The notes beneath the pieces were generated by a model. That model searched no databases. It worked only from the letters and a program-made list of their open reading frames with translations, and was not told the origin of the DNA. Below, piece by piece: positions 18,812 to 57,919 of a DNA stretch of 64,000 bases. Positions within the stretch are counted from its first letter, which is position 1; the number at the start of each line of letters is the position of its first letter. Location: positions 2,306 through 66,305 of the forward strand of contig JAUVFR010000005.1 in NCBI GenBank assembly GCA_030594205.1, given 5' to 3'. Made by a program: the position numbers and the translations under genes. This DNA is from Methanobacteriota archaeon (GTDB taxonomy: Archaea; Thermoplasmatota; Thermoplasmata; RBG-16-68-12; JAJISG01).

Positions 18812-19735
18812 TCAACCTTCGTGGTATCGCCGGATCCGACGGGCCGCCCGATCCGCCAGGTGCAGAGGTTCGGGAATCCGGGTGCGGCAGAGGTGCTGGA
18901 CGAACCGGAGGGCCGTGAGATCGCTGATCCGATGGCCGGGAGAGACGTAGATGGGCTTGCCCGTCCCGGGTCGAAACGCATGTCCCACGACCTCCCCGTT
19001 CGCCCGTACCGGAGTGGCCTCCCCCGGCGCCAGGATTTCCCGATCCAGCCGACCCATCAGGAGGCTTTTCGCCACCCCGATGGTGGGTCGATCGAGCTTG
19101 AGGCCCACATGGCATGCCACGCCGAACCGGTTTGGATGGAGGGTCCCGTTTCCGTCCACCAAGAGCAAGGCGGGTGGACCCTCGAAGCGCGCGTAACAGC
19201 CGGCCACCGGGTCGAACTCACGATAGGCCAGGTAGGTCGAGATGTAGGGGAAGTCCACGGACGTCGTGAGGCCAATCTCTTCCCGGACCTCCAGGGTCTC
19301 CCAATCGAGGCCGACGGCGGCGGCGTACGCCACATCACCTCGATATGAGACGTCGAATCCCGCCACGTTGTCCGGTTCTTGGAAGCGGTCTTTCAACACG
19401 ACCTGGGAGGCGAGGACGCGTTGCTCTCGACGCAGGGCGTCCAAGGGCCGATCCGTGCGAAAGTCCTGGAAGAGAATTCGATGAAAGTCTCGGAGCGCGC
19501 CGCCGCGAACCTCGACCCCTTCCTCATGGAGGCGAGAGGCGGCCTCCCCAAAGGCCAGCGTACCGTCGGCCCGCACCACACGGTGCCATCCCGGAGGCCG
19601 ATTCCTGCGAAGGAGTCGGAAGACAGGCACGGCGGCGCGGGCGTCTCCCAGGGCCTCCGCCAAGCCGCCGAACGTGGTGACGCGTCCAGCTTCCACTTGG
19701 GCCAGCAACTTCTCAACTTCTTGGCGAAACCGCAC
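18812..19735 (-). CDS. nfi: Alkyltransferase-like (ATL) domain fused to endonuclease V
   Basis: N-terminal ~100 aa have the AGT C-domain fold with PGWHRVVRADG (Trp in place of the PCHR cysteine, as in ATL proteins). The C-terminal 200 aa carry EndoV motifs (DVSYRGD.AYAAAV, LLLVDGNGTLHPNRFGVACHVG.KLDRPTIGVAKSLL). Confidence 0.8.
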   Translation of the reverse strand: MRFRQEVEKLLAQVEAGRVTTFGGLAEALGDARAAVPVFRLLRRNRPPGWHRVVRADGTLAFGEAASRLHEEGVEVRGGALRDFHRILFQDFRTDRPLDALRREQRVLASQVVLKDRFQEPDNVAGFDVSYRGDVAYAAAVGLDWETLEVREEIGLTTSVDFPYISTYLAYREFDPVAGCYARFEGPPALLLVDGNGTLHPNRFGVACHVGLKLDRPTIGVAKSLLMGRLDREILAPGEATPVRANGEVVGHAFRPGTGKPIYVSPGHRISDLTALRFVQHLCRTRIPEPLHLADRAARRIRRYHEG

Positions 19736-21698: not shown

Positions 21699-22037
21699 AT
21701 GCGCGAGGCTCTCGAAGATCTAGTCGCCACCTTCAACCGTCGTGCCGAAACGGACGCCCAGCTTCAGGAGGAGATCGCGGGGATGGAGCGGACGATCCAG
21801 CTCGTGACCGACAAGGGCGCGTATCACATGGCCCTGCGGGACGGTCGGATCGGGGGGCTGGAGGAGGGGCCGCTGGAAGGGGCCGACGTGACCATCACGT
21901 GCGACGAGGAGACGTTCCGTGGGCTGGTCGAGGGCCACATCCCGACCTTCAAGGCGATGGCCCTCGGGAAGCTGAAGCTGAAGGCCTCCTTGGAGGACGC
22001 CCTTCGGCTAAGGAAGCTCCTCTCGACCCGCACGTGA
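21699..22037 (+). CDS. SCP2 (sterol-carrier-like) domain protein
   Basis: 112 aa; …DVTITCDEETFRGLVEGHIPTFKAMALGKLKLKASLEDALRL matches the SCP2 C-terminal consensus. Confidence 0.65.
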   Translation: MREALEDLVATFNRRAETDAQLQEEIAGMERTIQLVTDKGAYHMALRDGRIGGLEEGPLEGADVTITCDEETFRGLVEGHIPTFKAMALGKLKLKASLEDALRLRKLLSTRT

Positions 22038-22079
22038 GACGATATCCTTAATATCGGCCGCGGCGGTGGCATCGACGAT

Positions 22080-22232
22080 AGCGGGGTGGGGTAGCTAGGA
22101 AACCCCGGGTCACCGCTTCAGCGGAGGCCGGAGCCTAAAATCCCGTCGGGCTCATAACCCGGAGATCCCTGGTTCAAAGGACCGGGGGCGGTGCCAACCG
22201 TGGTCCCCGGACTGGATTTCCAGGCCCCGCTA
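22080..22232 (+). tRNA. Initiator tRNA-Met (anticodon CAT), apparently interrupted by two non-canonical introns (~39 nt after position 26; ~40 nt in the T-loop at 59/60)
   Basis: Acceptor 5'-AGCGGGG / CCCCGCT-3' (A1:U72, the archaeal initiator hallmark). D arm GGGT/ACCC. Anticodon arm TCGGG-CTCATAA-CCCGG at 22146-22162. T arm CCTGG-TTCAAA[intron]T-CCAGG. Discriminator A. Folded by eye only. Confidence 0.55.
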
Positions 22233-22410
22233 TCCTCCTTTTACGCATCCCGGGCCCCATCACAGAACGATTAAGTACTCCCCTTTTCGTGCGAGGGGCA
22301 CGACATCGGAGAGCAGCCTCACCGTCACGAATCTGTCGAAGGCCTTCGACGGCCTCCAGGCGGTCGATTCCCTATCGTTAGACGTCAAGCGGGGAGAGAT
22401 TTACGGCTTC

Positions 22411-35950: not shown

Positions 35951-36049
35951 GCCGAGGTCGCCTAGTCCGGTAGGGCGCGAGCCTGGAGAGGACCCCTCGA
36001 TAGCTCGTGGCGGGCAACCGCCTCGGGAGTTCAAATCTCCCCCTCGGCG
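35951..36049 (+). tRNA. tRNA-Ser (anticodon GGA) with ~13-nt intron at the canonical 37/38 position and a long variable arm
   Basis: Acceptor GCCGAGG/CCTCGGC, discriminator G. Anticodon arm CGAGC-CTGGAG[intron AGGACCCCTCGAT]A-GCTCG. Variable arm GGCGGGCAACCGCC. T arm GGGAG-TTCAAAT-CTCCC. A TATA-like ACCTTTTATTCG lies about 30 nt upstream. Confidence 0.7.
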
Positions 36050-37050
36050 CTCGACCCTTCGCCCCCTCCCTCGCGGTTCGCGGCCTTCAATCGGTCAATG
36101 GATCCCACGGGACGGGGATCCACCCCCCGCAGGACCGCCAGGTACACGCTCACCAGGTCCCCAAGTAGGACGAGCTCCAACAGACCGGTCACGAAGTCCT
36201 CGCTGAGGAGCGGGACCGAGGTGACGGGCACCCGTTCCTCCAACAGCGCGAGGGTGTGCTGGAAGCGGGCGTGGATGGCGCTGTCGGAGGGTGGCATCAG
36301 CAAGACCGGGGCAAATCGTTCCGGATTCGATCCCTCAAGCCAGCCCACGATCTCGTTGTGGTTCGCCTCGGGGAGGATGCTGTGCCACGCGAGGGTCTTT
36401 GCGTTCTCGTTCAGCTGGGTCTGCCACCTTCGAGCCACCCCGGCATAGGGCGGGGGGCCGTAGATGATGGGTACCTTTCCCTCCAAGGCCGTGGCGATGG
36501 CCTTCGCCGGGTTCTCCTCCGTCGGGACGGCCGGAACCCATTCCTCTCGGATCCGGCCCAGGTCCGTAAGGGCACCCGGGAGCGCTTTTTCGAGTCGGGT
36601 GGAGGAGCGGGCCAGCAGGGTGAGCAGGGGTGCCAGAAGGTAGCCCAGAGCCGCCCGGGGCACGAAGCCGGGAGGGACGAAGACGTGGGGCACCCCCTGG
36701 GTCGAGGATGTCTCGGCAAGCTCTCCGCCCGATCCGACCGTCAGGCAGGAGAGGTCCCGCCCCAGCGCCTGTCGAAAGGCCGAGAGGGTCTCCCAGGTGT
36801 TCCCCGAATAGCTGATGGCAATCAGGAGATCCTCCTGGCCCACATAGGGGGGGATGCGGGGGGTCCGCGTGACTTGGACTTCCACCCCCCCGTACCACCT
36901 CCCCAGCGCGTGAGCAAGATCCCCTGCGATGGCCGACCCCCCCATGCCCACGACGAAAACGCGCCCCGAGGGCGGATGGGTCCAGGCAGCGTCCCTGACC
37001 CCTGCGAGTCCCTCCTCGATCTGCTCCGGGAGGGAGGAAAAGGTCCCCAT
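36031..37050 (-). CDS. Bifunctional phosphoglucose/phosphomannose isomerase (SIS domain, archaeal PGI/PMI)
   Basis: SIS motifs VFVVGMGGSAIAGDL…LLIAISYSGNTWETL. Start placed at MGTFSSLPEQIEE (37050) so that it does not overlap ribB. Its 3' end overlaps the 3' end of tRNA-Ser on the opposite strand. Confidence 0.7.
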   Translation of the reverse strand: MGTFSSLPEQIEEGLAGVRDAAWTHPPSGRVFVVGMGGSAIAGDLAHALGRWYGGVEVQVTRTPRIPPYVGQEDLLIAISYSGNTWETLSAFRQALGRDLSCLTVGSGGELAETSSTQGVPHVFVPPGFVPRAALGYLLAPLLTLLARSSTRLEKALPGALTDLGRIREEWVPAVPTEENPAKAIATALEGKVPIIYGPPPYAGVARRWQTQLNENAKTLAWHSILPEANHNEIVGWLEGSNPERFAPVLLMPPSDSAIHARFQHTLALLEERVPVTSVPLLSEDFVTGLLELVLLGDLVSVYLAVLRGVDPRPVGSIDRLKAANREGGGEGSSAEGEI

Positions 37051-40349: not shown

Positions 40350-42476
40350 TCACGTCACCTCGGACCCTGGACGGACCGGGCGGTCTAGGGTGACCTCGCG
40401 TTTGCCCGCCTTGAGGGGAAGACCCGGACCCCGAGAGCTCCCGTGGAAGTAGACGCGTCCGTCCTCCCCCACCTCTATGCGGAGTTTCTTGAACTCCTCG
40501 AAGGAGAGACGCGGGGCCCCCGGGGTGCCCAAGACCTGCGTGCCTGGTTCCGCATCCTCCGTGAGGAGGAGGGAGATTACGGGGCCGTCCACGGCGGCCA
40601 GGAGCATCGCATCGGACCGGACCCCTCGGAAGGTGCCCGGTTTGAGATTGACCAGGATCGCGACCCGTTTTCCCTCCAGCTCGCCGGGCTCATACTCCTC
40701 CCGCATCCCGGCGACCATGGTTCTTCGTTCCGATCCGAGGTCGGCCTCGACGACATACAGCTTGTCGGCATCGGGATGGTCCTCGACCTTGGTCACCTCC
40801 CCCACGCGCACGTCGAGCCTCTCGGCCTCCTCCACAGGCAACGCAGCCAGCTCGATCTTACGGAAGAGGGGCTTTGGGGCCTGGAGTCGTTGGCCCTCGG
40901 CGATCTCCTCTGGAACCGCCTCCCAGGGAGTCCCCTCGACGGGGCCATCGTAGCCCAGATATCCCCAAAGGCGTTGGGCAGAGAAGGGCAGGAAGGGGGC
41001 CGTGAGCAGGGCGAGACCCCGTACCACTCGCGTCGCGACGTGGAGGACGGTACCCACACGTCCCCGGTCCTGGGTGAGGAGGTCCCACGGAGCCTGGGCA
41101 TCGAAGTACTGGTTTCCCCGCTTGGCGAGGCGCATGATGCTCTGGAGCGCATCCCGGAAGTGGACGTACGCCAGATTCTGACCGACCTGCCGCCACGCCT
41201 CCTCCAGTTCGTGGAGGAAGGCCTCGTCTTCGGCCGTGAGGTCTCCCGCCGGAGGGACTTTGCCGAAGTTCTTGTGGGTGAACGTGAGGACGCGATGGAC
41301 GAAGTTGCCATAGATGGCGACGAGTTCGTTGTTTACGCGGCGGGCCAGCTCTTCGAACGTGAACTCGGAATCTTTGTTCTCTGGCATGTTGGCGCTCACG
41401 TAGTATCGCAGGGCGTCCGGATCGTATGCCCCAAGGAGGTCCTGTAGCCAGACACCCACTCCTCGGCCTGCGGACATCCTCTCCCCTTGGAAGGTCATGA
41501 ACTGGTTCGCGGGGACGTCGTATGGGAGGTCAAGGGTCTCGTCATACCCCATCAGAATGGCGGGCCAGATGAGCGTGTGAAACACGATGTTGTCCTTTCC
41601 AATGAAGTAGTAATGGCGCGCATCCGGGTCCTCCCACCAGGCCTTCCACTTCTCCGGATCACCCTGACGTCGGGCCCATTCCTGACTGGCCGAAAGGTAG
41701 CCCTGAACCGCCTCGAACCAGACGTAGATCCTCTTCTTCTCGTACCCGGGAAGGGGAACGTCGATGCCCCAGTCGATGTCCCGCGTGATGGGTCGGTCTT
41801 TCAGTCCCTCCCGTAGCCACGAGAGGGCGAAGTTCAGGACGTGGGGACGCCAGTGGCTCTTCGTCTGGAGCCAGGTTTTCAGCGCTGTTTGGAAGGCGCT
41901 GAGCCTCAAGAAGTAGTGCCGGGTCTCCCGCCGTTCCACCGCGGTCCCGCAGACCTGGCAGCGCGGCCCAATCAGGTCGAAGGGGTCGAGGATCCTCCCG
42001 CAATTCTCGCACTGGTCCCCGCGGGCCGCTTTGAAGTGGCAATGGGGGCACTCGCCCTCGATGTAGCGATCCGGCCGAAACCGCTCATCGTGAGGGCACC
42101 AGGCAGCGTCCATCGAGTCCTCGTACACGTGGCCTCGGTCCTTGAGGCGAAGGAAGACGTCCCTGACGAGGGCAGCGTGGGCGGGGTCCGATGTCTTCCA
42201 GTAGAGATCCCAGGAGATGCCGAGTGCCTCGAAACTCTCGGTGTGGATTGCGTGGAAGCGTTCGGCCACCTCCTCGGGCGAGACTCCCTCTTCCTCGGCA
42301 CGGACGGTCGTGGGGGTCCCGTGCATGTCGCTCCCGCTTACCATGAGCACCTCGTCGCCCGCCATCCGGTGGTACCGGGCGAAGATGTCCGCAGGGACGT
42401 AGGCCCCGGCCGCGTGTCCGATATGCCGGGGTCCGCTGGCATAGGGCCAGGCGACACCCAGGAAGAGCTTGGCCAT
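40350..42476 (-). CDS. metG: Methionyl-tRNA synthetase with C-terminal tRNA-binding (EMAP-like) domain
   Basis: HIGH motif (GPRHIGHAAG), zinc knuckle CPHCHF…CENCG, KMSKS-type region. Confidence 0.95.
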   Translation of the reverse strand: MAKLFLGVAWPYASGPRHIGHAAGAYVPADIFARYHRMAGDEVLMVSGSDMHGTPTTVRAEEEGVSPEEVAERFHAIHTESFEALGISWDLYWKTSDPAHAALVRDVFLRLKDRGHVYEDSMDAAWCPHDERFRPDRYIEGECPHCHFKAARGDQCENCGRILDPFDLIGPRCQVCGTAVERRETRHYFLRLSAFQTALKTWLQTKSHWRPHVLNFALSWLREGLKDRPITRDIDWGIDVPLPGYEKKRIYVWFEAVQGYLSASQEWARRQGDPEKWKAWWEDPDARHYYFIGKDNIVFHTLIWPAILMGYDETLDLPYDVPANQFMTFQGERMSAGRGVGVWLQDLLGAYDPDALRYYVSANMPENKDSEFTFEELARRVNNELVAIYGNFVHRVLTFTHKNFGKVPPAGDLTAEDEAFLHELEEAWRQVGQNLAYVHFRDALQSIMRLAKRGNQYFDAQAPWDLLTQDRGRVGTVLHVATRVVRGLALLTAPFLPFSAQRLWGYLGYDGPVEGTPWEAVPEEIAEGQRLQAPKPLFRKIELAALPVEEAERLDVRVGEVTKVEDHPDADKLYVVEADLGSERRTMVAGMREEYEPGELEGKRVAILVNLKPGTFRGVRSDAMLLAAVDGPVISLLLTEDAEPGTQVLGTPGAPRLSFEEFKKLRIEVGEDGRVYFHGSSRGPGLPLKAGKREVTLDRPVRPGSEVT

Positions 42477-50699: not shown

Positions 50700-51467
50700 T
50701 CAGCCCCCTCGACGCCGCCTTCGCAGGTAGGCGCCCACGAAGAGCGCCACGACGAAGACCGCGATGGCGCCGAGGATGATAAAGAGGGGGTTGATGGGCT
50801 CGGCTTCGATCGTGAACACAGCCCGGAGGACGACGTCGCCAGTGGCCGGGTCGATGATGCCGTCATCGCGGAGGTCCACCCGGACTTCCAGGGTATGGGT
50901 CCCGACACCCAGATCCACGGGCAGGTAGGAGAAGCTCACCGACTTCGTCTCGCCAGGCATCAGGCTGTCGATCTCCGTCTCCGCCACCTGCTGCTCGTTG
51001 ATGAAGAGGGCGACTGGGACGTTCCGGACCTCGATGGAGCCCGTATTTCGCACCTGGGCGGTGATCTCCAAGGGGACCAGAACCCGGATCTGTTTCGTGC
51101 CGGTGCCGAGGGCAAAGTCGCCCCCCTTGGTCGAATTGCCCTCCACCACCAATGTGACGAACTGGTCGGCGAAGGGCATCGTGACGTTGAACGCGAACGT
51201 GGAGTTCACGGACGAGAGGAAGAGGGGGTCGTCCTCCAAGGGGGCAGCGCCTGCCAGGTCCGGTCCCCTGAGGAAGGCCTGGATGGACCAGGTTCCGTTG
51301 TTCTCCCCCGGTCCGCCGGCCACCGTGGCCGTCATCTCCACGGTGGCGCCCGTCGCCAGGTCGTCAGGCCCCGCAACGAACACAGCCACGGATTCCTGGG
51401 CCTGCGTGGGGAGAACCGGAAGAAGCAGGAGCGCGAGGGCCAGCAGGGGGAGGAGTCTCGCGCTCAT
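50700..51467 (-). CDS. Secreted surface protein with CARDB-like beta-sandwich domains and C-terminal TM anchor plus poly-Arg tail
   Basis: N-terminal signal peptide MSARLLPLLALALLLLPVLPTQAQ. NxS/T sequons. C-terminal …LFIILGAIAVFVVALFVGAYLRRRRRGG. Its start overlaps the aglB stop by 4 nt, so it is co-transcribed. Confidence 0.6.
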   Translation of the reverse strand: MSARLLPLLALALLLLPVLPTQAQESVAVFVAGPDDLATGATVEMTATVAGGPGENNGTWSIQAFLRGPDLAGAAPLEDDPLFLSSVNSTFAFNVTMPFADQFVTLVVEGNSTKGGDFALGTGTKQIRVLVPLEITAQVRNTGSIEVRNVPVALFINEQQVAETEIDSLMPGETKSVSFSYLPVDLGVGTHTLEVRVDLRDDGIIDPATGDVVLRAVFTIEAEPINPLFIILGAIAVFVVALFVGAYLRRRRRGG

Positions 51468-54400
51468 CGGCGCCGCCTCCGACCACGGTAGGTGAGGAAA
51501 AGCACGGTGAGACCAATCGCGGCCGCGGCCAAGGCCCCGTATAGCAAGACCGGGAACTCCGGGGGTCCGAGTCGCACGCGCTTCCCCTCAACCTGGAGTT
51601 GGTCCGCGGGGATCTGGAGGGAAGGGAAGCCTACCGCGACGTCGAGTCTGGATTCCACTTCATCATCCTGCTCGGAGAACGCGAGGAAGGTGGCCGTGCT
51701 CGCACTGACGCGACCCTCGGCCTGCAGTCGGAGGGTGACGGGCCGGGACTCGCCGGCCGGGACCACGATGCCCGTGATGTTGTCAGGGGAGATCTGCCCC
51801 TCAAAGACGAGTTCCGCCCTCCACCCCTGGGCCGCCAAGACCTCGGAGTTGGTCAGGACGAGCTCGAAGGTGTCCCCCCCGTTCCCATCGTTCGTCACAT
51901 CGATCTGGTACGCGAGCTCCTCCGCCTCCAAGATCGGCGGATCCTCGCTCAAGTCGATGGTCAGGCCACGGAACTGGAGGACCTCGACGAACATCGTCTC
52001 CAGCGAGACCACGGACGGATCCGTCGTGGATCGGGCGACCACCGTGAGGGTCCCCTCCGGGGCCTTCGCGTTCTCCGGGGTGGCGATCTGGACCGTCACC
52101 TCGGCCGAGGTCCCTGTGCCAAAGGGCAGACTCACCCTCGAGGGCCGGAAGCTGAAGACCCAACCCGCGGGGCGTCCCTCGAAACTGAATGTGTCCGCCA
52201 GGTTCCCCGTGTTAGTGACCGTGATTCTGTACACGAAGGTCTCGCCTGGGGCGACGAGGGCTCGCTGGTCGGAGTCCCACGTGACCTCCAAGGTCCTCAC
52301 GTCCACCCGCGTGAGGAGAGGATTCAGGAGGGTGCTGTCCGCCAGGTGCACCCCCCTTTCGAATCGGTACTCCACGGGGACGCCCCCCTCATCCCGCCTC
52401 GCGAGGGCCAGGAGATCGTAGGCTCCTGCGGGCAGGTAGACCTCGTACCCACCTTGAGCATCCGTGGTGAAGCTGGCGCTGCCAACCAACGATCGGAACC
52501 CGAGCTGGGCCGTGCGGCGACTGCCATCGGAGAGGATGGCGACCCCGAAGATCCGATACCCTTGTTCCAACGGGAGGGCCAAGGTCGTGGGGCGGTCAGG
52601 GAGCACGTCCAGCTCGGCCAAGGCGGCGGAATTCCCGATATCACGGAAGGCGTAGACGTGGTACGTTCCCGGGGCCAGGTCGACCAAGAAGGGGGCGCCC
52701 GCGGGCACATCGACGGTGACGTTGAGGGCCGTCTCGTTGGCGGCCTGGAAGGCGACTCGGGCCGAGGTCAACTGTTCGCCCAGGAGAACCCGAAGCTCGA
52801 CCGCTCGTGTGTCCAACGTCCGCGCAAAGAGGAGATCGGCGGTGCCGTTCTCGGTAAGGACGATGGTCTGGTCCAACGTGTAGCGTACGAAACGGCTCAC
52901 CTCGTCGAGGCGATCCACGCCAACCCACTCCGCCGTGGCTCGGTATGTCGCCGGGACCAGGATGGTGCTGTATCCGTCCGATCCGGCGCCGGGCACGACC
53001 ACCTGGGCGCCGTCGGCTAACCGGGTGAAGGCGATGGAAACGTCGGGGGTCACCGTCTCGCCATTGACTTTCAGTTGACCCCTCAAGGTGGCCGCCGGCT
53101 GGAAGGTGGTATTGAATTCGGCGGGATTCGTCAGGTCGAGCACGGTGAGCAGGGCCAAGGGCGACGGGAGGTCGGTCGCGCCGGAGACGGTGTACTCTCC
53201 GGGCTCCAGATACACGAGGTACTCCTCATCGGACTTCACGAAGACGCGATTGGGACCGTCGAAGAGGACGGCCACTCCGAGGGGGCTCCCCGAGCTGATG
53301 GTTCCTCGAACGCGGACCCGCTCCAGCACGGGGAGACTGAAGGCCTCGACCCCACCGCCGACGGGCACGCGAAGCTCCGCCGCCTCCCCCTGAACGCGTC
53401 GACTTCCGTCCCCGGGCGGCGCCTCCGCGTCCACGACGAGGCGATAGATGCCCGGTTGGACGGAGGCGAGCACGCTTCCGAGGGCCCCCGTCGCCAAGGT
53501 GGCGGAGGCGGCACCGTTGCTGACGGCCTCGAAGGAGACATTCAAGCCCGAGAGATCCAGGGGCCCGAGGGCGGTGAGCTGACCCGCCACGGTCACGTTC
53601 CGGGCCAAGAGTTCGATGGGGGCCCGAGCCCCGAGGTCCCGGGGGGGCAGCGGGCCGACCGAAACGGGCTCGAAGGCCTCCTCGTCGATAGACCAGACGT
53701 AATCTGTGTTCTCAAGGAGGGTCGTTTCGAATGCGCCTTCGGTCTCGGTCAAGACGGTAAACGTGGGCGTCGTTGGCGTCGAGATGCGAACATGGATTCC
53801 CGACAGGCCCTCGCCGGGGTCGTAGCTCATGTTCCCGTTGAGATCGCGGAAGACGCGACCCGGCGCGACCACGCCGGGAGATAACGTGAGGTTTAGGTCC
53901 GTAGGCCCGCCCACCGTGACTGTGGATACCTGCTGTCCCGTGACGTTCAGGGCCACGACCTGGTACTGCGCCGTCGGCAGGAACGCGACGAAGGACCCGT
54001 CGAGGTCGGAGGTGACGGCGTGTCGGGCTCCTCCCCCCTCGAAGGTCACGGTGGCCTGGGCGGCGACGCCCCCCTGGCCCGTGACGCTGCCTCCGACCCG
54101 GTAGGCGGTCCGGAGGTTGAATTCGATGGTCTGGCTCCCGGGCCCGATCTCCACCAACCCGAGGAATCCGAAGGTCCGTCCCCCTGCGAAGTGGAGGGCG
54201 TAGGCGTCGTAGGTTCCCAGGGGCAACGCGGTGGCGAATCGACTGGCGGCGTCGCTGGTCACCAGCAGCTGATTGGCCTCACCCCGGCGTTGCAAGGCCA
54301 CGGTCACGTGAGGCGTCGGGGCGAAGGAGAGCAGGGTGCGGCCCGTCACCATTGCCTGTGGCTCGACCCGGAGGTCCAATGTCGCCTCCGACCCTCCGAC

Positions 54401-57400
54401 GAGGGCGATCTCCCGCGGAAAGGCCCCGCGCTCACCCCCCTCCGCCTTCACGGTGTAGATTCCCTCGAAGAGACCGTCCAGGCGGTAGGTCCCGTTCTCC
54501 CCCGTCACGACGCTCGTTACCTCGCTCGTGGCCTGTTCGACGATCTGAACCGTCGCGGCGACGGGAGGCAAGCCGAATTCGTCCGTGAGCAAGCCGGATA
54601 GCGAGGCCCCAGGTACCGCCAGGTCCTGGTTTCGGTCCTCTCCCTGGCTCATTGTGAGGTTAACCGAAGCGACCTCCGTGCCGTTCCGGTCGAGAAAGAG
54701 GTGGTAGCGGGTCGGGACGAGATCTACCAACTCGTAGGCCCCGTCGGGCCCGGTGACGGTCGCCGCTTCGAGGGCATCTCCGGCGATGTCAAGAACGCCA
54801 ACCTGCAGCCCCGGAAGCCCTGGTTCTTCGGGGTCTCGCACGCTGTTCCCGTTCACGTCCATGAAGGCCGTCCCCCGGAAGGTCCCGGCCTCGACGATGA
54901 AGTCACGCTCAATGACGAAGCTAGGGAGGCCGGTCCCCGTCTCGTCCAGGGGGACCCGAAGGGCCTGAGCCTGGCTGATGTTGAATTTCTCCTCGATGAG
55001 CATGGCTCCGACTCCGGTGGCGCTATTCGCCGGACCGGTGGAGATGGCCAGCGTGGTCTCTCCGAAGAGGAGGGTCGCTTCGAAGAACCCGTCGCTGTCC
55101 GCGAACGTGATCGAGTGGGGGGTAAGGAGCTCGTCCAGGACCGTGACCCGTACCCCGGCGAGCGGCGTCCCCGCCTCGGTGGCCACGCGACCGCGCAGCA
55201 GGGCGCCGTCGAAGAACTTGAGAAACACGATGCCGCTCTGGAGGGCCGTGCGAGCGGCAACGTCGACGGTCCCCTCCCGTTCCCCCGCGGTGATCTGCCT
55301 CTGGAGTTCCAAGGCATCAAAGATGTTGAGGGCCGTGAACTCCTCGGTGAAGCTGGCGACCTCGTCGGGCGGATGGGGGTTGAAATAGGCCGTCCGGTAG
55401 ACCATCTTGAAGTGCTCCAGCATCCACCCGTGTCGGGGTTCGACGCTCGCCAGAGCCCCCGAGAAGGCCGGGAGGCCCTCGTTGGCTAGGCCCAAGGCCT
55501 CCCCGTCGGGTCCGAAGAAGATGCGGTAGAGCATGGAGCGGTACCAGGGGTCCAGATACTCGATGCGAATGTCCGAGATTTGGCCCCCTGGGGGGATCTG
55601 GTCTAGGTCGAACTCGCCCTGGGGCGTCACCGCGATGAGACGATAGAAGTCCACGGGGATGCTTCGGCCGTCCGCGAGTTCCGTCTTCCGGTGGTCCGTG
55701 AGCTTGGCTACGGCGTAGAAGATGCCGGTGCTGGTCCCGGTGAAGGGGATCAGCCGGGAGTCGACGGCGAAGTAGCCGATGGAGGCGCCGACCGTGCTCC
55801 GGAGGTCCCGGTAAAAGTCGGTCTGGGCATCGATCCCCAGGGCCTCGACGAAGATGGTGCGGAGGTAGATGATGCGCGCGTTCTGCTGCGAGAGACGCGC
55901 GTCCCACTCCCGGAACCGTTCGGGCTCCGCCCGGATCAGGGGGATGAAGAGGGCAGGCTGCCTCATCGCGTCGAGGACGTGGTCGGGGTCGAACCCGTAG
56001 GCGACCAGGACTGCCTTGGTGGCCGCGCTGAACTGGCCTCGGTTGGTCGCGAAGTCGCCATGGAGGAGCCGAACGTTCAAGACCGCGATGCCCTCGTTCT
56101 CGGATTGGGAGGTCAGGAAGTGACCCGCGTACTCCAGGCCGTTCTGGAAATTGTCGGCCACGGCGGGGTGCCGCCCGTCCTGGATGGCCTCGAAACCGTA
56201 GTCCCACCAGCTAAGGAACGCCGGTCGTTCCCACGTAGGAATGACTTCGGTGTCCTGGTCCCGTAACCAGGACCACGCCTGGGGGAAGTAGCGGTTGGGG
56301 AGGGGGAGCGTGTACCCGAAGGCCCCGAAATAGAAGAGGCCCTGGTCCGCCTGAGGGGGTCGCAGAAAGTCGGGGATCACCCGGAGGACTTCCTCCTGCA
56401 GGGCATCCTTGACCTCGAAGGGACTCCCCGCGTCCACCGCGAGCCAGGCATTGGGGAGGAACACGAGGATGGCCACGAGGAAGACACCCGCCACGTGGCG
56501 GATCTTGACCCCCCGGCGGAGGGCCCCGAGGCGGCTGCCTCCCGTGGTGGCGATGGCCTTCTCCACCTGCTCCAGCCCGAGGCGCTCGACGATCAGGATG
56601 ACGACCCAGGCCGCGGTGATGGCGAAGGCGGGCGAGGCGTTGAAGAGGAACCGCACTGCGGAGAGGGCCATGAAGATGGCCGCCACGATCCACACGAGCA
56701 CGAACAGGAAATCGGGCCGAGGACGTCGGATGAATTGGAGGGCCAACAGGACGATGCCCGCCAGGGAGAAGTAGAAGGTGACCGCGCCGAAGGAGAGGAT
56801 GACCTGACTGAGGTTCGGGGGCTGCGCCTCGGCGATGGTCTCGAAGACCTTGTTCGGGACGAAGTAGCCGAGTCCGGAGCTCAGGGCCGCCGCTACCGAA
56901 GGACTGTACACGGCCATGATGGCGGTCCCGGCTAGGAAGCCGAGGATGATGGGAGGGATCACCAGCATCCAGGGCAGACGGTGGAAGATGGCAAACACGA
57001 GCCCGAGACCGAGGGAGGCCAGGAAGAGATACAACGGGACGTCGAACCAGGTCCGTACCTGGCCCGTTAGCACGTAGTACGGTGCCGCCAAGAGGTGGGC
57101 GACGCCGAGCGTGATGGCGAAGACCAGGAGGATGCCCAAGGGGTCCTGGTTGCGAATCTTGTGGACCACAAGCTGCGCCAGGAAATAGACGACGATGATG
57201 ACGACGGCGTAGGCCCACCCTTTCCACGTCAGCGCGATGACCGCCAGGGCCGTGCCCGCCATGACGGCGAGGAGGACGGTCCTCCGGTTCTCTGTGAACA
57301 GCGCCCCGAGTCCCCGGACGACGGCACGAGGACGCCACCAAGCCTCGACCCAGGGGCGTTCCTTGAGCCCCGCCAAGGCCTTGAGGAGGAAGTAGAAGGC

Positions 57401-57919
57401 CGTGACGACGAAGAAGAGGACGAGGGCGTCGTGGTCTCCGTTGCTGAAGGGCGTCCGCTGGATGTGGGCGGGAAGGAGGGCCAGGAAGAAGGCGGCGATG
57501 TACGCCGTCCGCCGACCGAACATCTCCTTCGCCAGAAAGTACGTCGGGAAGATCGTCAGCGCGCCCCAGACGGCCGTCGAGAACAGGAAGGTCTGGCCGA
57601 CGCCGACCGATACGGAACCCTGGAGGGTGCCTACCACCTGGCCGACCAGAGCGACACTCCAGGCGTAGATGGGCGGCCGGGGATTCAGCATCCCCACCGG
57701 GAAGTTCAACATCGGATCCTGCAGGAGGTGCCGGCCGGTCGCGACGATGTTGTCCAGGATCCACCCGAAGTAGAAGGCGTCCGAGCCGCCGGAGACCAGG
57801 AAGTCCCGGATGGCCAGCTCGTAGGCGAAGAAGGCCCGGATGAAGAGGGCCACGGCGAAGATGCCGCCTAGGACAAGGAACGGGCTCACCCTTCTCCGTA
57901 GGGTTCCCTCGGTTTCCAT
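51464..57919 (-). CDS. aglB: Oligosaccharyltransferase AglB/STT3 fused to a ~1250-aa array of CarboxypepD_reg-like and CARDB beta-sandwich repeats, ending in a second C-terminal TM anchor (2151 aa)
   Basis: N-terminal ~13 TM helices and the catalytic WWDYG motif (…FLSWWDYGFEAIQDGRH…) identify STT3/AglB. Residues ~900-2100 contain at least 10 repeats of the pattern G.V……G.P..GV.V…TD..G.Y.…P.G.Y, two CARDB-like units (NTGNLADTFSFEG, NDGNGGDTFELV) and many N-glycosylation sequons. The C-terminus is …LLYGALAAAAIGLTVLFLTYRGRRRRR. Confidence 0.8.
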   Translation of the reverse strand: METEGTLRRRVSPFLVLGGIFAVALFIRAFFAYELAIRDFLVSGGSDAFYFGWILDNIVATGRHLLQDPMLNFPVGMLNPRPPIYAWSVALVGQVVGTLQGSVSVGVGQTFLFSTAVWGALTIFPTYFLAKEMFGRRTAYIAAFFLALLPAHIQRTPFSNGDHDALVLFFVVTAFYFLLKALAGLKERPWVEAWWRPRAVVRGLGALFTENRRTVLLAVMAGTALAVIALTWKGWAYAVVIIVVYFLAQLVVHKIRNQDPLGILLVFAITLGVAHLLAAPYYVLTGQVRTWFDVPLYLFLASLGLGLVFAIFHRLPWMLVIPPIILGFLAGTAIMAVYSPSVAAALSSGLGYFVPNKVFETIAEAQPPNLSQVILSFGAVTFYFSLAGIVLLALQFIRRPRPDFLFVLVWIVAAIFMALSAVRFLFNASPAFAITAAWVVILIVERLGLEQVEKAIATTGGSRLGALRRGVKIRHVAGVFLVAILVFLPNAWLAVDAGSPFEVKDALQEEVLRVIPDFLRPPQADQGLFYFGAFGYTLPLPNRYFPQAWSWLRDQDTEVIPTWERPAFLSWWDYGFEAIQDGRHPAVADNFQNGLEYAGHFLTSQSENEGIAVLNVRLLHGDFATNRGQFSAATKAVLVAYGFDPDHVLDAMRQPALFIPLIRAEPERFREWDARLSQQNARIIYLRTIFVEALGIDAQTDFYRDLRSTVGASIGYFAVDSRLIPFTGTSTGIFYAVAKLTDHRKTELADGRSIPVDFYRLIAVTPQGEFDLDQIPPGGQISDIRIEYLDPWYRSMLYRIFFGPDGEALGLANEGLPAFSGALASVEPRHGWMLEHFKMVYRTAYFNPHPPDEVASFTEEFTALNIFDALELQRQITAGEREGTVDVAARTALQSGIVFLKFFDGALLRGRVATEAGTPLAGVRVTVLDELLTPHSITFADSDGFFEATLLFGETTLAISTGPANSATGVGAMLIEEKFNISQAQALRVPLDETGTGLPSFVIERDFIVEAGTFRGTAFMDVNGNSVRDPEEPGLPGLQVGVLDIAGDALEAATVTGPDGAYELVDLVPTRYHLFLDRNGTEVASVNLTMSQGEDRNQDLAVPGASLSGLLTDEFGLPPVAATVQIVEQATSEVTSVVTGENGTYRLDGLFEGIYTVKAEGGERGAFPREIALVGGSEATLDLRVEPQAMVTGRTLLSFAPTPHVTVALQRRGEANQLLVTSDAASRFATALPLGTYDAYALHFAGGRTFGFLGLVEIGPGSQTIEFNLRTAYRVGGSVTGQGGVAAQATVTFEGGGARHAVTSDLDGSFVAFLPTAQYQVVALNVTGQQVSTVTVGGPTDLNLTLSPGVVAPGRVFRDLNGNMSYDPGEGLSGIHVRISTPTTPTFTVLTETEGAFETTLLENTDYVWSIDEEAFEPVSVGPLPPRDLGARAPIELLARNVTVAGQLTALGPLDLSGLNVSFEAVSNGAASATLATGALGSVLASVQPGIYRLVVDAEAPPGDGSRRVQGEAAELRVPVGGGVEAFSLPVLERVRVRGTISSGSPLGVAVLFDGPNRVFVKSDEEYLVYLEPGEYTVSGATDLPSPLALLTVLDLTNPAEFNTTFQPAATLRGQLKVNGETVTPDVSIAFTRLADGAQVVVPGAGSDGYSTILVPATYRATAEWVGVDRLDEVSRFVRYTLDQTIVLTENGTADLLFARTLDTRAVELRVLLGEQLTSARVAFQAANETALNVTVDVPAGAPFLVDLAPGTYHVYAFRDIGNSAALAELDVLPDRPTTLALPLEQGYRIFGVAILSDGSRRTAQLGFRSLVGSASFTTDAQGGYEVYLPAGAYDLLALARRDEGGVPVEYRFERGVHLADSTLLNPLLTRVDVRTLEVTWDSDQRALVAPGETFVYRITVTNTGNLADTFSFEGRPAGWVFSFRPSRVSLPFGTGTSAEVTVQIATPENAKAPEGTLTVVARSTTDPSVVSLETMFVEVLQFRGLTIDLSEDPPILEAEELAYQIDVTNDGNGGDTFELVLTNSEVLAAQGWRAELVFEGQISPDNITGIVVPAGESRPVTLRLQAEGRVSASTATFLAFSEQDDEVESRLDVAVGFPSLQIPADQLQVEGKRVRLGPPEFPVLLYGALAAAAIGLTVLFLTYRGRRRRR

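Follow-up and report, generated by a model that had tools for sequence, protein, structure and literature searches.

An interrupted initiator tRNA gene

Positions 22080-22232 on the forward strand of the window (the whole 64-kb stretch of DNA analysed here) hold an initiator tRNA-Met(CAU) gene of 153 nt that is interrupted by two bulge-helix-bulge (BHB) introns. In five consecutive segments it reads AGCGGGGTGGGGTAGCTAGGAA, ACCCCGGGTCACCGCTTCAGCGGAGGCCGGAGCCTAAA, ATCCCGTCGGGCTCATAACCCGGAGATCCCTGGTTCAAA, GGACCGGGGGCGGTGCCAACCGTGGTCCCCGGACTGGATT and TCCAGGCCCCGCTA. The exons, of 22, 39 and 14 nt, add up to a 75-nt tRNA, the introns measure 38 and 40 nt, and excision of both in silico restores a canonical tRNA. 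The gene and its flanking signals are laid out as follows.

22040-22047 (+): BRE-like element CGATATCC, read from the sequence
22048-22054 (+): TATA box TTAATAT, at -32 to -26 from tRNA position 1
22080-22101 (+): exon 1, tRNA positions 1-20a, with the acceptor 5' strand AGCGGGG, U8 and G9, the D-stem 5' strand GGGT and the D-loop stretch AGCTAGGAA
22102-22139 (+): intron 1 as placed here, 38 nt, in the D loop at 20a/21, with a relaxed HBh'-type BHB
22140-22178 (+): exon 2, tRNA positions 21-59, with A21, the D-stem 3' strand TCCC, G26 and the anticodon arm TCGGG-CTCATAA-CCCGG on its 5' side, and the variable loop AGATC, the T-stem 5' strand CCTGG and the T-loop stretch TTCAAA on its 3' side
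22153-22155 (+): anticodon CAT, in the 7-nt loop of the anticodon arm at 22146-22162
22179-22218 (+): intron 2, 40 nt, in the T loop at 59/60, with a strict hBHBh' motif
22219-22232 (+): exon 3, tRNA positions 60-73, with T60, the T-stem 3' strand CCAGG, the acceptor 3' strand CCCCGCT and the discriminator A73
22233-22243 (+): trailer TCCTCCTTTTA, pyrimidine- and T-rich, read from the sequence

The hallmarks of an initiator tRNA are an A1:U72 pair and three consecutive G:C pairs at 29-31:39-41, and both are present in the spliced product. The acceptor strand AGCGGGG (22080-22086) pairs with CCCCGCT (22225-22231), which sets A 22080 against T 22231 as A1:U72, and in the anticodon stem GGG (22148-22150) is matched by CCC (22158-22160). 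The discriminator A is followed by TCC, and CCA is not encoded. The landmarks named in the earlier note, namely A1:U72, the arm TCGGG-CTCATAA-CCCGG, a TTCAAA/T loop that is split and the lack of an encoded CCA, are all where it had placed them. When spliced in silico at 22101/22139 and 22178/22218, the gene gives a 75-mer that ARAGORN calls tRNA-Met(CAT), with the D arm GGGT-AGCTAGGAAA-TCCC and G26. Such a product would be a standard archaeal initiator tRNA, with A1:U72, R11:Y24, U13.U22, G26 and G29-31:C39-41. On comparative grounds, the locus is very probably functional, as a gene for initiator tRNA-Met(CAU) that belongs to an uncultured Thermoplasmata archaeon and consists of three collinear exons and two introns of the endonuclease type. 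We also considered and rejected self-splicing group I or II introns (the introns are 38 and 40 nt long, with no Rfam intron match) and a split or permuted tRNA, the exons being collinear within 153 nt.

The BRE-like element and the TATA box lie in a palindrome, CGATAT-CCTTA-ATATCG, at 22040-22056. In all eight orthologues with upstream sequence (8/8; see below), TTAATAT stands at the same distance from the tRNA and is preceded by cGATAnc, but the 3' half of the palindrome (ATATCG) is not conserved. The segment 22040-22054 is therefore best read, by archaeal consensus, as a putative BRE/TATA promoter, and the palindrome, to which the TATA sequence had earlier been assigned, as incidental: a putative promoter element about 30 nt upstream stands, and of the palindrome only the BRE/TATA half is conserved. 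Downstream, the trailer at 22233-22243 is likely to be an archaeal oligo-T termination signal, and the trailers of the orthologues are also pyrimidine-rich. CCA is encoded by none of the tRNAiMet genes of the clade; the intron-less genes of the Thermoplasmata-like genomes L006 and L061 do encode it. Elsewhere in the window are the gene for the cognate methionyl-tRNA synthetase (40350-42476, minus strand), 18 kb from the tRNA, and a 2151-aa ORF (51464-57919, minus strand). The synthetase is 100% identical to a protein of a 'Candidatus Thermoplasmatota archaeon', which assigns the host to that phylum.

Default annotation (ARAGORN in default mode, Rfam) misses the tRNAiMet gene of 22080-22232. 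ARAGORN called no tRNA on the unspliced DNA of the whole window, and around the locus Rfam gave no tRNA match at gathering thresholds or at E<=10. Because default tools miss the gene, genomes of this clade would seem to be without an initiator tRNA. A covariance model built from 18 intron-less archaeal tRNAiMet and run with filters off matches exon 2 at 38.1 bits (E 3.5e-10), a match that does not thread the introns and does not settle their boundaries. The proposed check with a tRNA predictor, made with ARAGORN, was thus borne out on spliced sequence and failed on the unspliced DNA: the 74-mer of the initial model, with both of its segments removed, was called tRNA-Met(CAT), so that the threading cannot be put down to chance.

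A second hidden tRNA lies at 35951-36050 (+) of the window. It is a tRNA-Ser(GGA) with a long variable arm, interrupted at the canonical position 37/38 by an intron of 13 nt whose BHB central helix has only 3/4 pairs; default ARAGORN and the Rfam gathering thresholds missed it, a scan for T-arm and acceptor found it, and ARAGORN -i confirmed it. At 21956-22011 (+), in an ORF of the SCP2 family, Rfam reports a Flavivirus DB element at 21.9 bits against a gathering threshold of 41.5, which is almost certainly a chance match.

Placement and structure of the two introns

Archaeal tRNA introns are defined by the BHB motif, a helix of 4 bp in which each strand is followed on its 3' side by a bulge of 3 nt; the cut falls after the second nucleotide of each bulge. 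This geometry, as used here, agrees with that in PMC5829648 and PMC6379350. An exhaustive scan for it, over all pairs of cut sites in this part of the window, ranks first the BHB formed by 22178/22179 and 22218/22219 (central helix H 4/4, outer helix 5 bp, inner helix 7/8). Here H pairs 22173-22176 (TTCA) with 22213-22216 (TGGA), four of four with one G.U, between the bulges AA/G (22177-22179) and TT/T (22217-22219). The T stem itself (22168-22172 with 22220-22224) serves as the outer helix, the inner helix joins 22180-22187 to 22205-22212 with one A.A mismatch, and a terminal hairpin pairs 22189-22192 with 22197-22200. The T-loop intron 22179-22218 is therefore a strict hBHBh' motif, and of the four junctions that the earlier note had put forward for a BHB check, these two pass, with the 59/60 position that it gave. 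The structure is kept in seven orthologues, with the exception of one H pair lost in L251; in L249 an A:U pair replaces G:C at the first position of the inner helix, and in L239 the H pairs U54:A and U55:G become U54:G and U55:A, with the partners swapped. The weak H helix of this intron is not recovered by local minimum free energy (MFE) folding.

For the D-loop intron, the scan gives 22101/22102 with 22139/22140, with H 4/4, bulges AA/A and AA/A and an inner helix of 6/8. H pairs 22096-22099 (TAGG) with 22134-22137 (CCTA), the 5' bulge is AA/A (22100-22102), and the inner helix joins 22103-22108 to 22128-22133 (CCCCGG with CCGGAG) with one C.A mismatch. The 3' site, AA/A at 22138-22140, stands opposite the unpaired A14, G15 and C16 in a small internal loop. 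Because this site faces unpaired nucleotides and no outer helix abuts H, the motif falls outside the strict hBHBh' class, and it matches the relaxed HBh' class as defined in PMC5829648. The A runs at both ends would allow the cuts to move in tandem by 1-2 nt with the product unchanged. RNAalifold and local MFE folds of all eight orthologues recover the H and inner helices of intron 1 independently. They likewise recover its distal hairpin, in which the sequence changes and the pairing is kept (CCGC/GCGG in the window, CUGU/ACGG in L050), and in L249, L255 and L169 a change of A53 to G turns the C.A mismatch into a C:G pair.

As a single sequence, the whole 153 nt fold at -79.2 kcal/mol (MFE), compared with -67.5 for the BHB fold, and this MFE structure uses the ACCCC of intron 1 as a pseudo D-stem strand. 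Because the whole-gene MFE differs from the BHB fold, we relied on the comparative and local folds. Across the orthologues, 95.7% of cells are paired in the proposed pre-tRNA structure, compared with 27-58% when the partners are slid. Covariation is thin: most BHB pairs are invariant, a double change occurs once, and 72 of 500 shuffles score at least as high as the real alignment, a weak statistic because most pairs never vary.

The earlier note had proposed two introns at non-canonical positions in an archaeal initiator tRNA-Met, of which the gene and the pair of introns stand and the position 26/27 of the first intron does not. From the sequence comparisons that follow, the first intron lies in the D loop (22102-22139, at 20a/21). 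With the first intron at 26/27 (22107-22145), the D arm would be GGGT/ACCC with C26 and the second intron would stay at 59/60. That arrangement has a D stem that is fully Watson-Crick and a 74-mer that is a tRNA-Met to ARAGORN, the covariance model gives it a weak D-arm match at 22089-22106 (7.6 bits), and the single-sequence MFE pairs GGGGU with ACCCC; its junctions (22106/22107 and 22145/22146) have no BHB, however, the would-be central helix AACC/ATCC forming 0/4 pairs. The 26/27 splice product reads ...GGAAACCCCTCGGG and carries C26, as against a G26 in 30/30 distinct intron-less archaeal initiators, of which 23/30 have U13.U22. A profile built from these 30 scores the D-loop 20a/21 product at 76.0 bits, the product of a 25/26 alternative at 69.9 bits and the 26/27 product lowest, at 66.7 bits. 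In line with this, the intron-less tRNAiMet of the Thermoplasmata-like genomes L006 and L061 begin AGCGGGGTGGGGTAGCTAGGAAATCCCGTCGGGCTC, and the first 50 nt of the D-loop splice product are identical to them. Furthermore, the sister group L253/L254, which is without the D-loop intron, reads ...GGATATCCCGTCGGG; it has TCCC-G-TCGGG and not ACCC-C-TCGGG, from which it follows that TCCC-G-TCGGG is the ancestral exon sequence. We consider placement at 26/27 very improbable; the threading worked there because the start of the intron, ACCCCG, mimics the true D-stem 3' strand, ATCCCG.

An intron at 25/26 (22106-22144), giving GGGT/ACCC, a retained G26 and a 74-nt tRNA, is likewise very improbable. Its product resembles the Bathyarchaeia-type initiators of L048 and L110 (GGGT...ACCC-G), but it scores below the D-loop product on the profile, at most one of four pairs can be read by eye in its central helix, it is absent from the BHB candidates that have a 4/4 central helix, and U13.U22 with TCCC is found throughout its closest relatives and in the syntenic sister group. 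With the D-loop placement, the start of intron 1 (22102-22110, ACCCCGGG) is seen to resemble the start of exon 2 (22140-22150, ATCCCGTCGGG). By pairing with the D-stem 5' strand it can give the precursor a pseudo D arm, the one that appears in the single-sequence MFE.

Orthologues, sister group and integrity of the gene

Relatives were gathered through homologues of RNase HII and through two DNA scans, one of genomes and one of metagenomes; the genome scan, with one genome per species and the exon-2 word GGGCTCATAACCCGGAGATC, gave 120 loci. The neighbourhood is conserved in the order endonuclease V / amidohydrolase / RNase HII / SCP2 / tRNA / (ABC transporter) / KaiC. Both introns occur at the same positions in seven distinct full-length genes (the window, L246, L050, L251, L239, L247 and L249), and the same introns are found, as far as the sequences reach, in six truncated copies (L001, L243, L244, L245, L248 and L255) and in the fragment L169. 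These copies come from independent assemblies of related uncultured Thermoplasmata. Their exons are identical except at position 27 (T or C, both of which pair with G43), exons 1 and 3 being invariant; the introns differ, the flanking DNA is only 65-77% identical and RNase HII 60-87% identical.

This pattern bears on two further readings of the locus. The gene might be a decaying or non-functional copy with unspliced insertions, the initiator tRNA being supplied by another gene, and the relaxed D-loop motif in a lineage that is expected to have a narrow-specificity EndA (PMC6379350) would fit such a copy. Yet the exons are kept identical, save for the pair-preserving U or C at 27, while flanks and RNase HII diverge, the introns diverge and keep their helices, and the promoter is conserved. 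Kept exons, helices and promoter are not what is expected of a pseudogene, which we regard as most unlikely here. An assembly artefact or chimera is more remote still, in the region of the negligible: a public contig of the same organism (L001, JAUVHN010000055.1) ends at 22180, 2 nt into intron 2, and six further contigs break off within the gene, but the complete two-intron gene is present in at least seven independent assemblies and samples, and the endonuclease V ORF (18812-19735) runs uninterrupted across the other end of L001. That the window is made of concatenated contigs was ruled out by the same continuous ORF and by the complete gene in other assemblies. We keep to the reading of a two-intron initiator gene that is conserved and very probably functional.

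Contigs of seven independent assemblies stop in the tRNA gene (the ends of L001, L243, L244, L245, L248 and L255, and the start of L169), several of them within a few nt of an exon-intron junction. The short contigs that bear RNase HII all end in the tRNA gene and none further downstream. The cause may be variation of introns between strains (L244 and L245 have identical RNase HII and different intron 1) or a loss of coverage over GC-rich hairpins.

In the sister group (L253:3556-3692 and L254:3557-3692), the same syntenic locus, with RNase HII 54-56% identical, holds a tRNAiMet gene with a 29-nt canonical 37/38 intron (central helix CTCA:TGAG) and a 59/60 intron, and without the D-loop intron; its TATA-like box lies about 30 nt further upstream. 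Position 59/60 is thus interrupted in both branches, by introns whose sequences are not obviously alike, and the other intron differs between them. This turnover between D loop and 37/38 within the clade suggests that introns may recently have been gained, lost or transposed in Euryarchaeota. The syntenic series (D loop with T loop; 37/38 with T loop), taken together with intron-less relatives, is a natural data set for the gain, loss and movement of tRNA introns. Searches of the window and the fetched loci for extra copies of either intron returned only the orthologous introns, and no C/D-box guide motifs were seen by eye in either intron. To see whether the intron might disrupt an integration site, exon 2 and the joined T arm and acceptor were matched against viral contigs; there were 0 hits, which speaks neither for nor against the idea.

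In 38 of the 104 distinct hits of the metagenome scan, an archaeal initiator tRNA has an insertion in its T loop, and the best BHB cut falls at 59/60. Another 45 of the 104 are false positives with an intact T arm and a chance CCCGCTA downstream, mostly in initiator tRNAs of bacterial type. Because 38 of 104 hits have their best BHB cut at 59/60, the position of the join in the permuted gene of Thermofilum pendens, this site is recurrent in archaeal initiator tRNAs and not peculiar to one genome. Among these metagenome loci (L123-L242), single introns of 25-36 nt at 59/60 are common in environmental archaea (38/104; examples are L142, L153, L156, L171, L176, L146 and L148), and in every one of them the exon side of the central helix is T54-A57 (TTCA).

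Splicing and comparison with known systems

By analogy with the established archaeal pathway, we infer that the transcript of 22080-22232 is cut by EndA, ligated by RtcB and completed by CCA addition. Transcription would start from the BRE/TATA promoter about 30 nt upstream, and the pre-tRNA would fold so that each intron presents a BHB motif. EndA would then cut after the second nucleotide of each bulge, the RtcB ligase would join the exons, and the CCA-adding enzyme would add the terminal CCA.

Cleavage of the T-loop intron should be within reach of any archaeal EndA, since its motif is strict. Relaxed motifs are reported to be cut only by (alpha-beta)2 and epsilon2 EndA with a specificity loop (PMC5829648), and alpha'2 is the only EndA type reported for Cluster II Euryarchaeota, Thermoplasma acidophilum included (PMC5829648, PMC6379350); the T. 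acidophilum enzyme is listed as narrow in specificity (PMC6379350). An unusual splicing-endonuclease repertoire in the host, as had been suggested, is plausible. We hold it possible, though rather doubtful, that this Thermoplasmata clade depends on the cutting of a relaxed D-loop HBh' motif in perhaps its only initiator tRNA gene, although it belongs to Cluster II, for which only alpha'2 has been reported. If this is true, either the EndA of the clade gained broad specificity independently, through a new loop or subunit architecture, or alpha'2 handles such motifs in a folded pre-tRNA; in both cases the association that is now accepted between the type of EndA and the disruption of tRNA genes would no longer hold. 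Queries with a Methanocaldococcus jannaschii EndA sequence, and with the L064 homologue that it detected, found no EndA homologue in the 64-kb window or in the fetched loci of the clade.

According to passages in PMC4090602 (citing Sugahara et al. 2007/2008) and PMC8450103, Thermoproteales and Thaumarchaeota have multiple-intron tRNA genes. The present gene resembles them in that its D loop and its T loop are each interrupted, at the non-canonical positions 20a/21 and 59/60, by an intron of the BHB type; with two introns, at least one of them non-canonical, it shows a trait of the multiple-intron class. The introns are also short (38-40 nt here), and the exons restore a canonical cloverleaf. 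The host is in contrast a member of the Thermoplasmata (Euryarchaeota 'Cluster II') and not of the TACK archaea, in which multi-intron cases co-occur with an (alpha-beta)2 EndA bearing a Crenarchaea-specific loop (PMC5829648). The two-intron initiator design is already known in archaea, and it is the Thermoplasmata lineage that is unexpected. The earlier note had tied multi-intron tRNAs with T-loop introns to a few lineages; this host, a Thermoplasmatota MAG, is outside them, and the literature search turned up no open-access paper describing non-canonical tRNA introns in Thermoplasmatota. Multi-intron non-canonical tRNA genes now reach a euryarchaeal class whose sole characterised EndA, that of T. 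acidophilum, is a narrow alpha'2.

The permuted tRNAiMet of T. pendens, which is joined at 59/60 (Chan et al. 2011, PMC3218864), shares with the present gene the tRNA species, the 59/60 break point and a BHB at the junction. That gene is circularly permuted and has a 37/38 intron, whereas here the exons keep their linear order and the other intron interrupts the D loop. Methanopyrus kandleri pre-tRNA-Glu offers a euryarchaeal case of a relaxed HBh' intron (PMC5829648). M. kandleri is, however, a Cluster I euryarchaeon with a single intron, as against two here, and its EndA is an (alpha-beta)2 without the specific loop, which cuts the relaxed motif inefficiently (PMC5829648). With canonical 37/38 euryarchaeal introns (for example in the tRNA-Ser(GGA) of the window and in L253/L254), the gene shares the splicing chemistry and the BHB logic, but neither of the introns of 22080-22232 is at 37/38.

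ARMAN/Micrarchaeota, in which disrupted tRNA genes occur together with an epsilon2 EndA (PMC3239211, PMC3488258), are likewise a lineage outside TACK with relaxed (HBh'/BHL) motifs outside the anticodon loop, and differ in lineage and in intron positions. Micrarchaeota-like tRNAiMet genes among our loci (L021, L076, L125, L131, L173, L196 and L232) have up to three introns each, which follow position 9 or interrupt the D arm or the T stem. Within the window and the fetched loci, the sole EndA of an epsilon2-like, three-unit kind comes from the Micrarchaeaceae locus L064, where a 346-aa ORF (L064:6962-7999), about 7 kb from the tRNAiMet of that locus, has two EndA-like regions, as expected of a three-unit enzyme.
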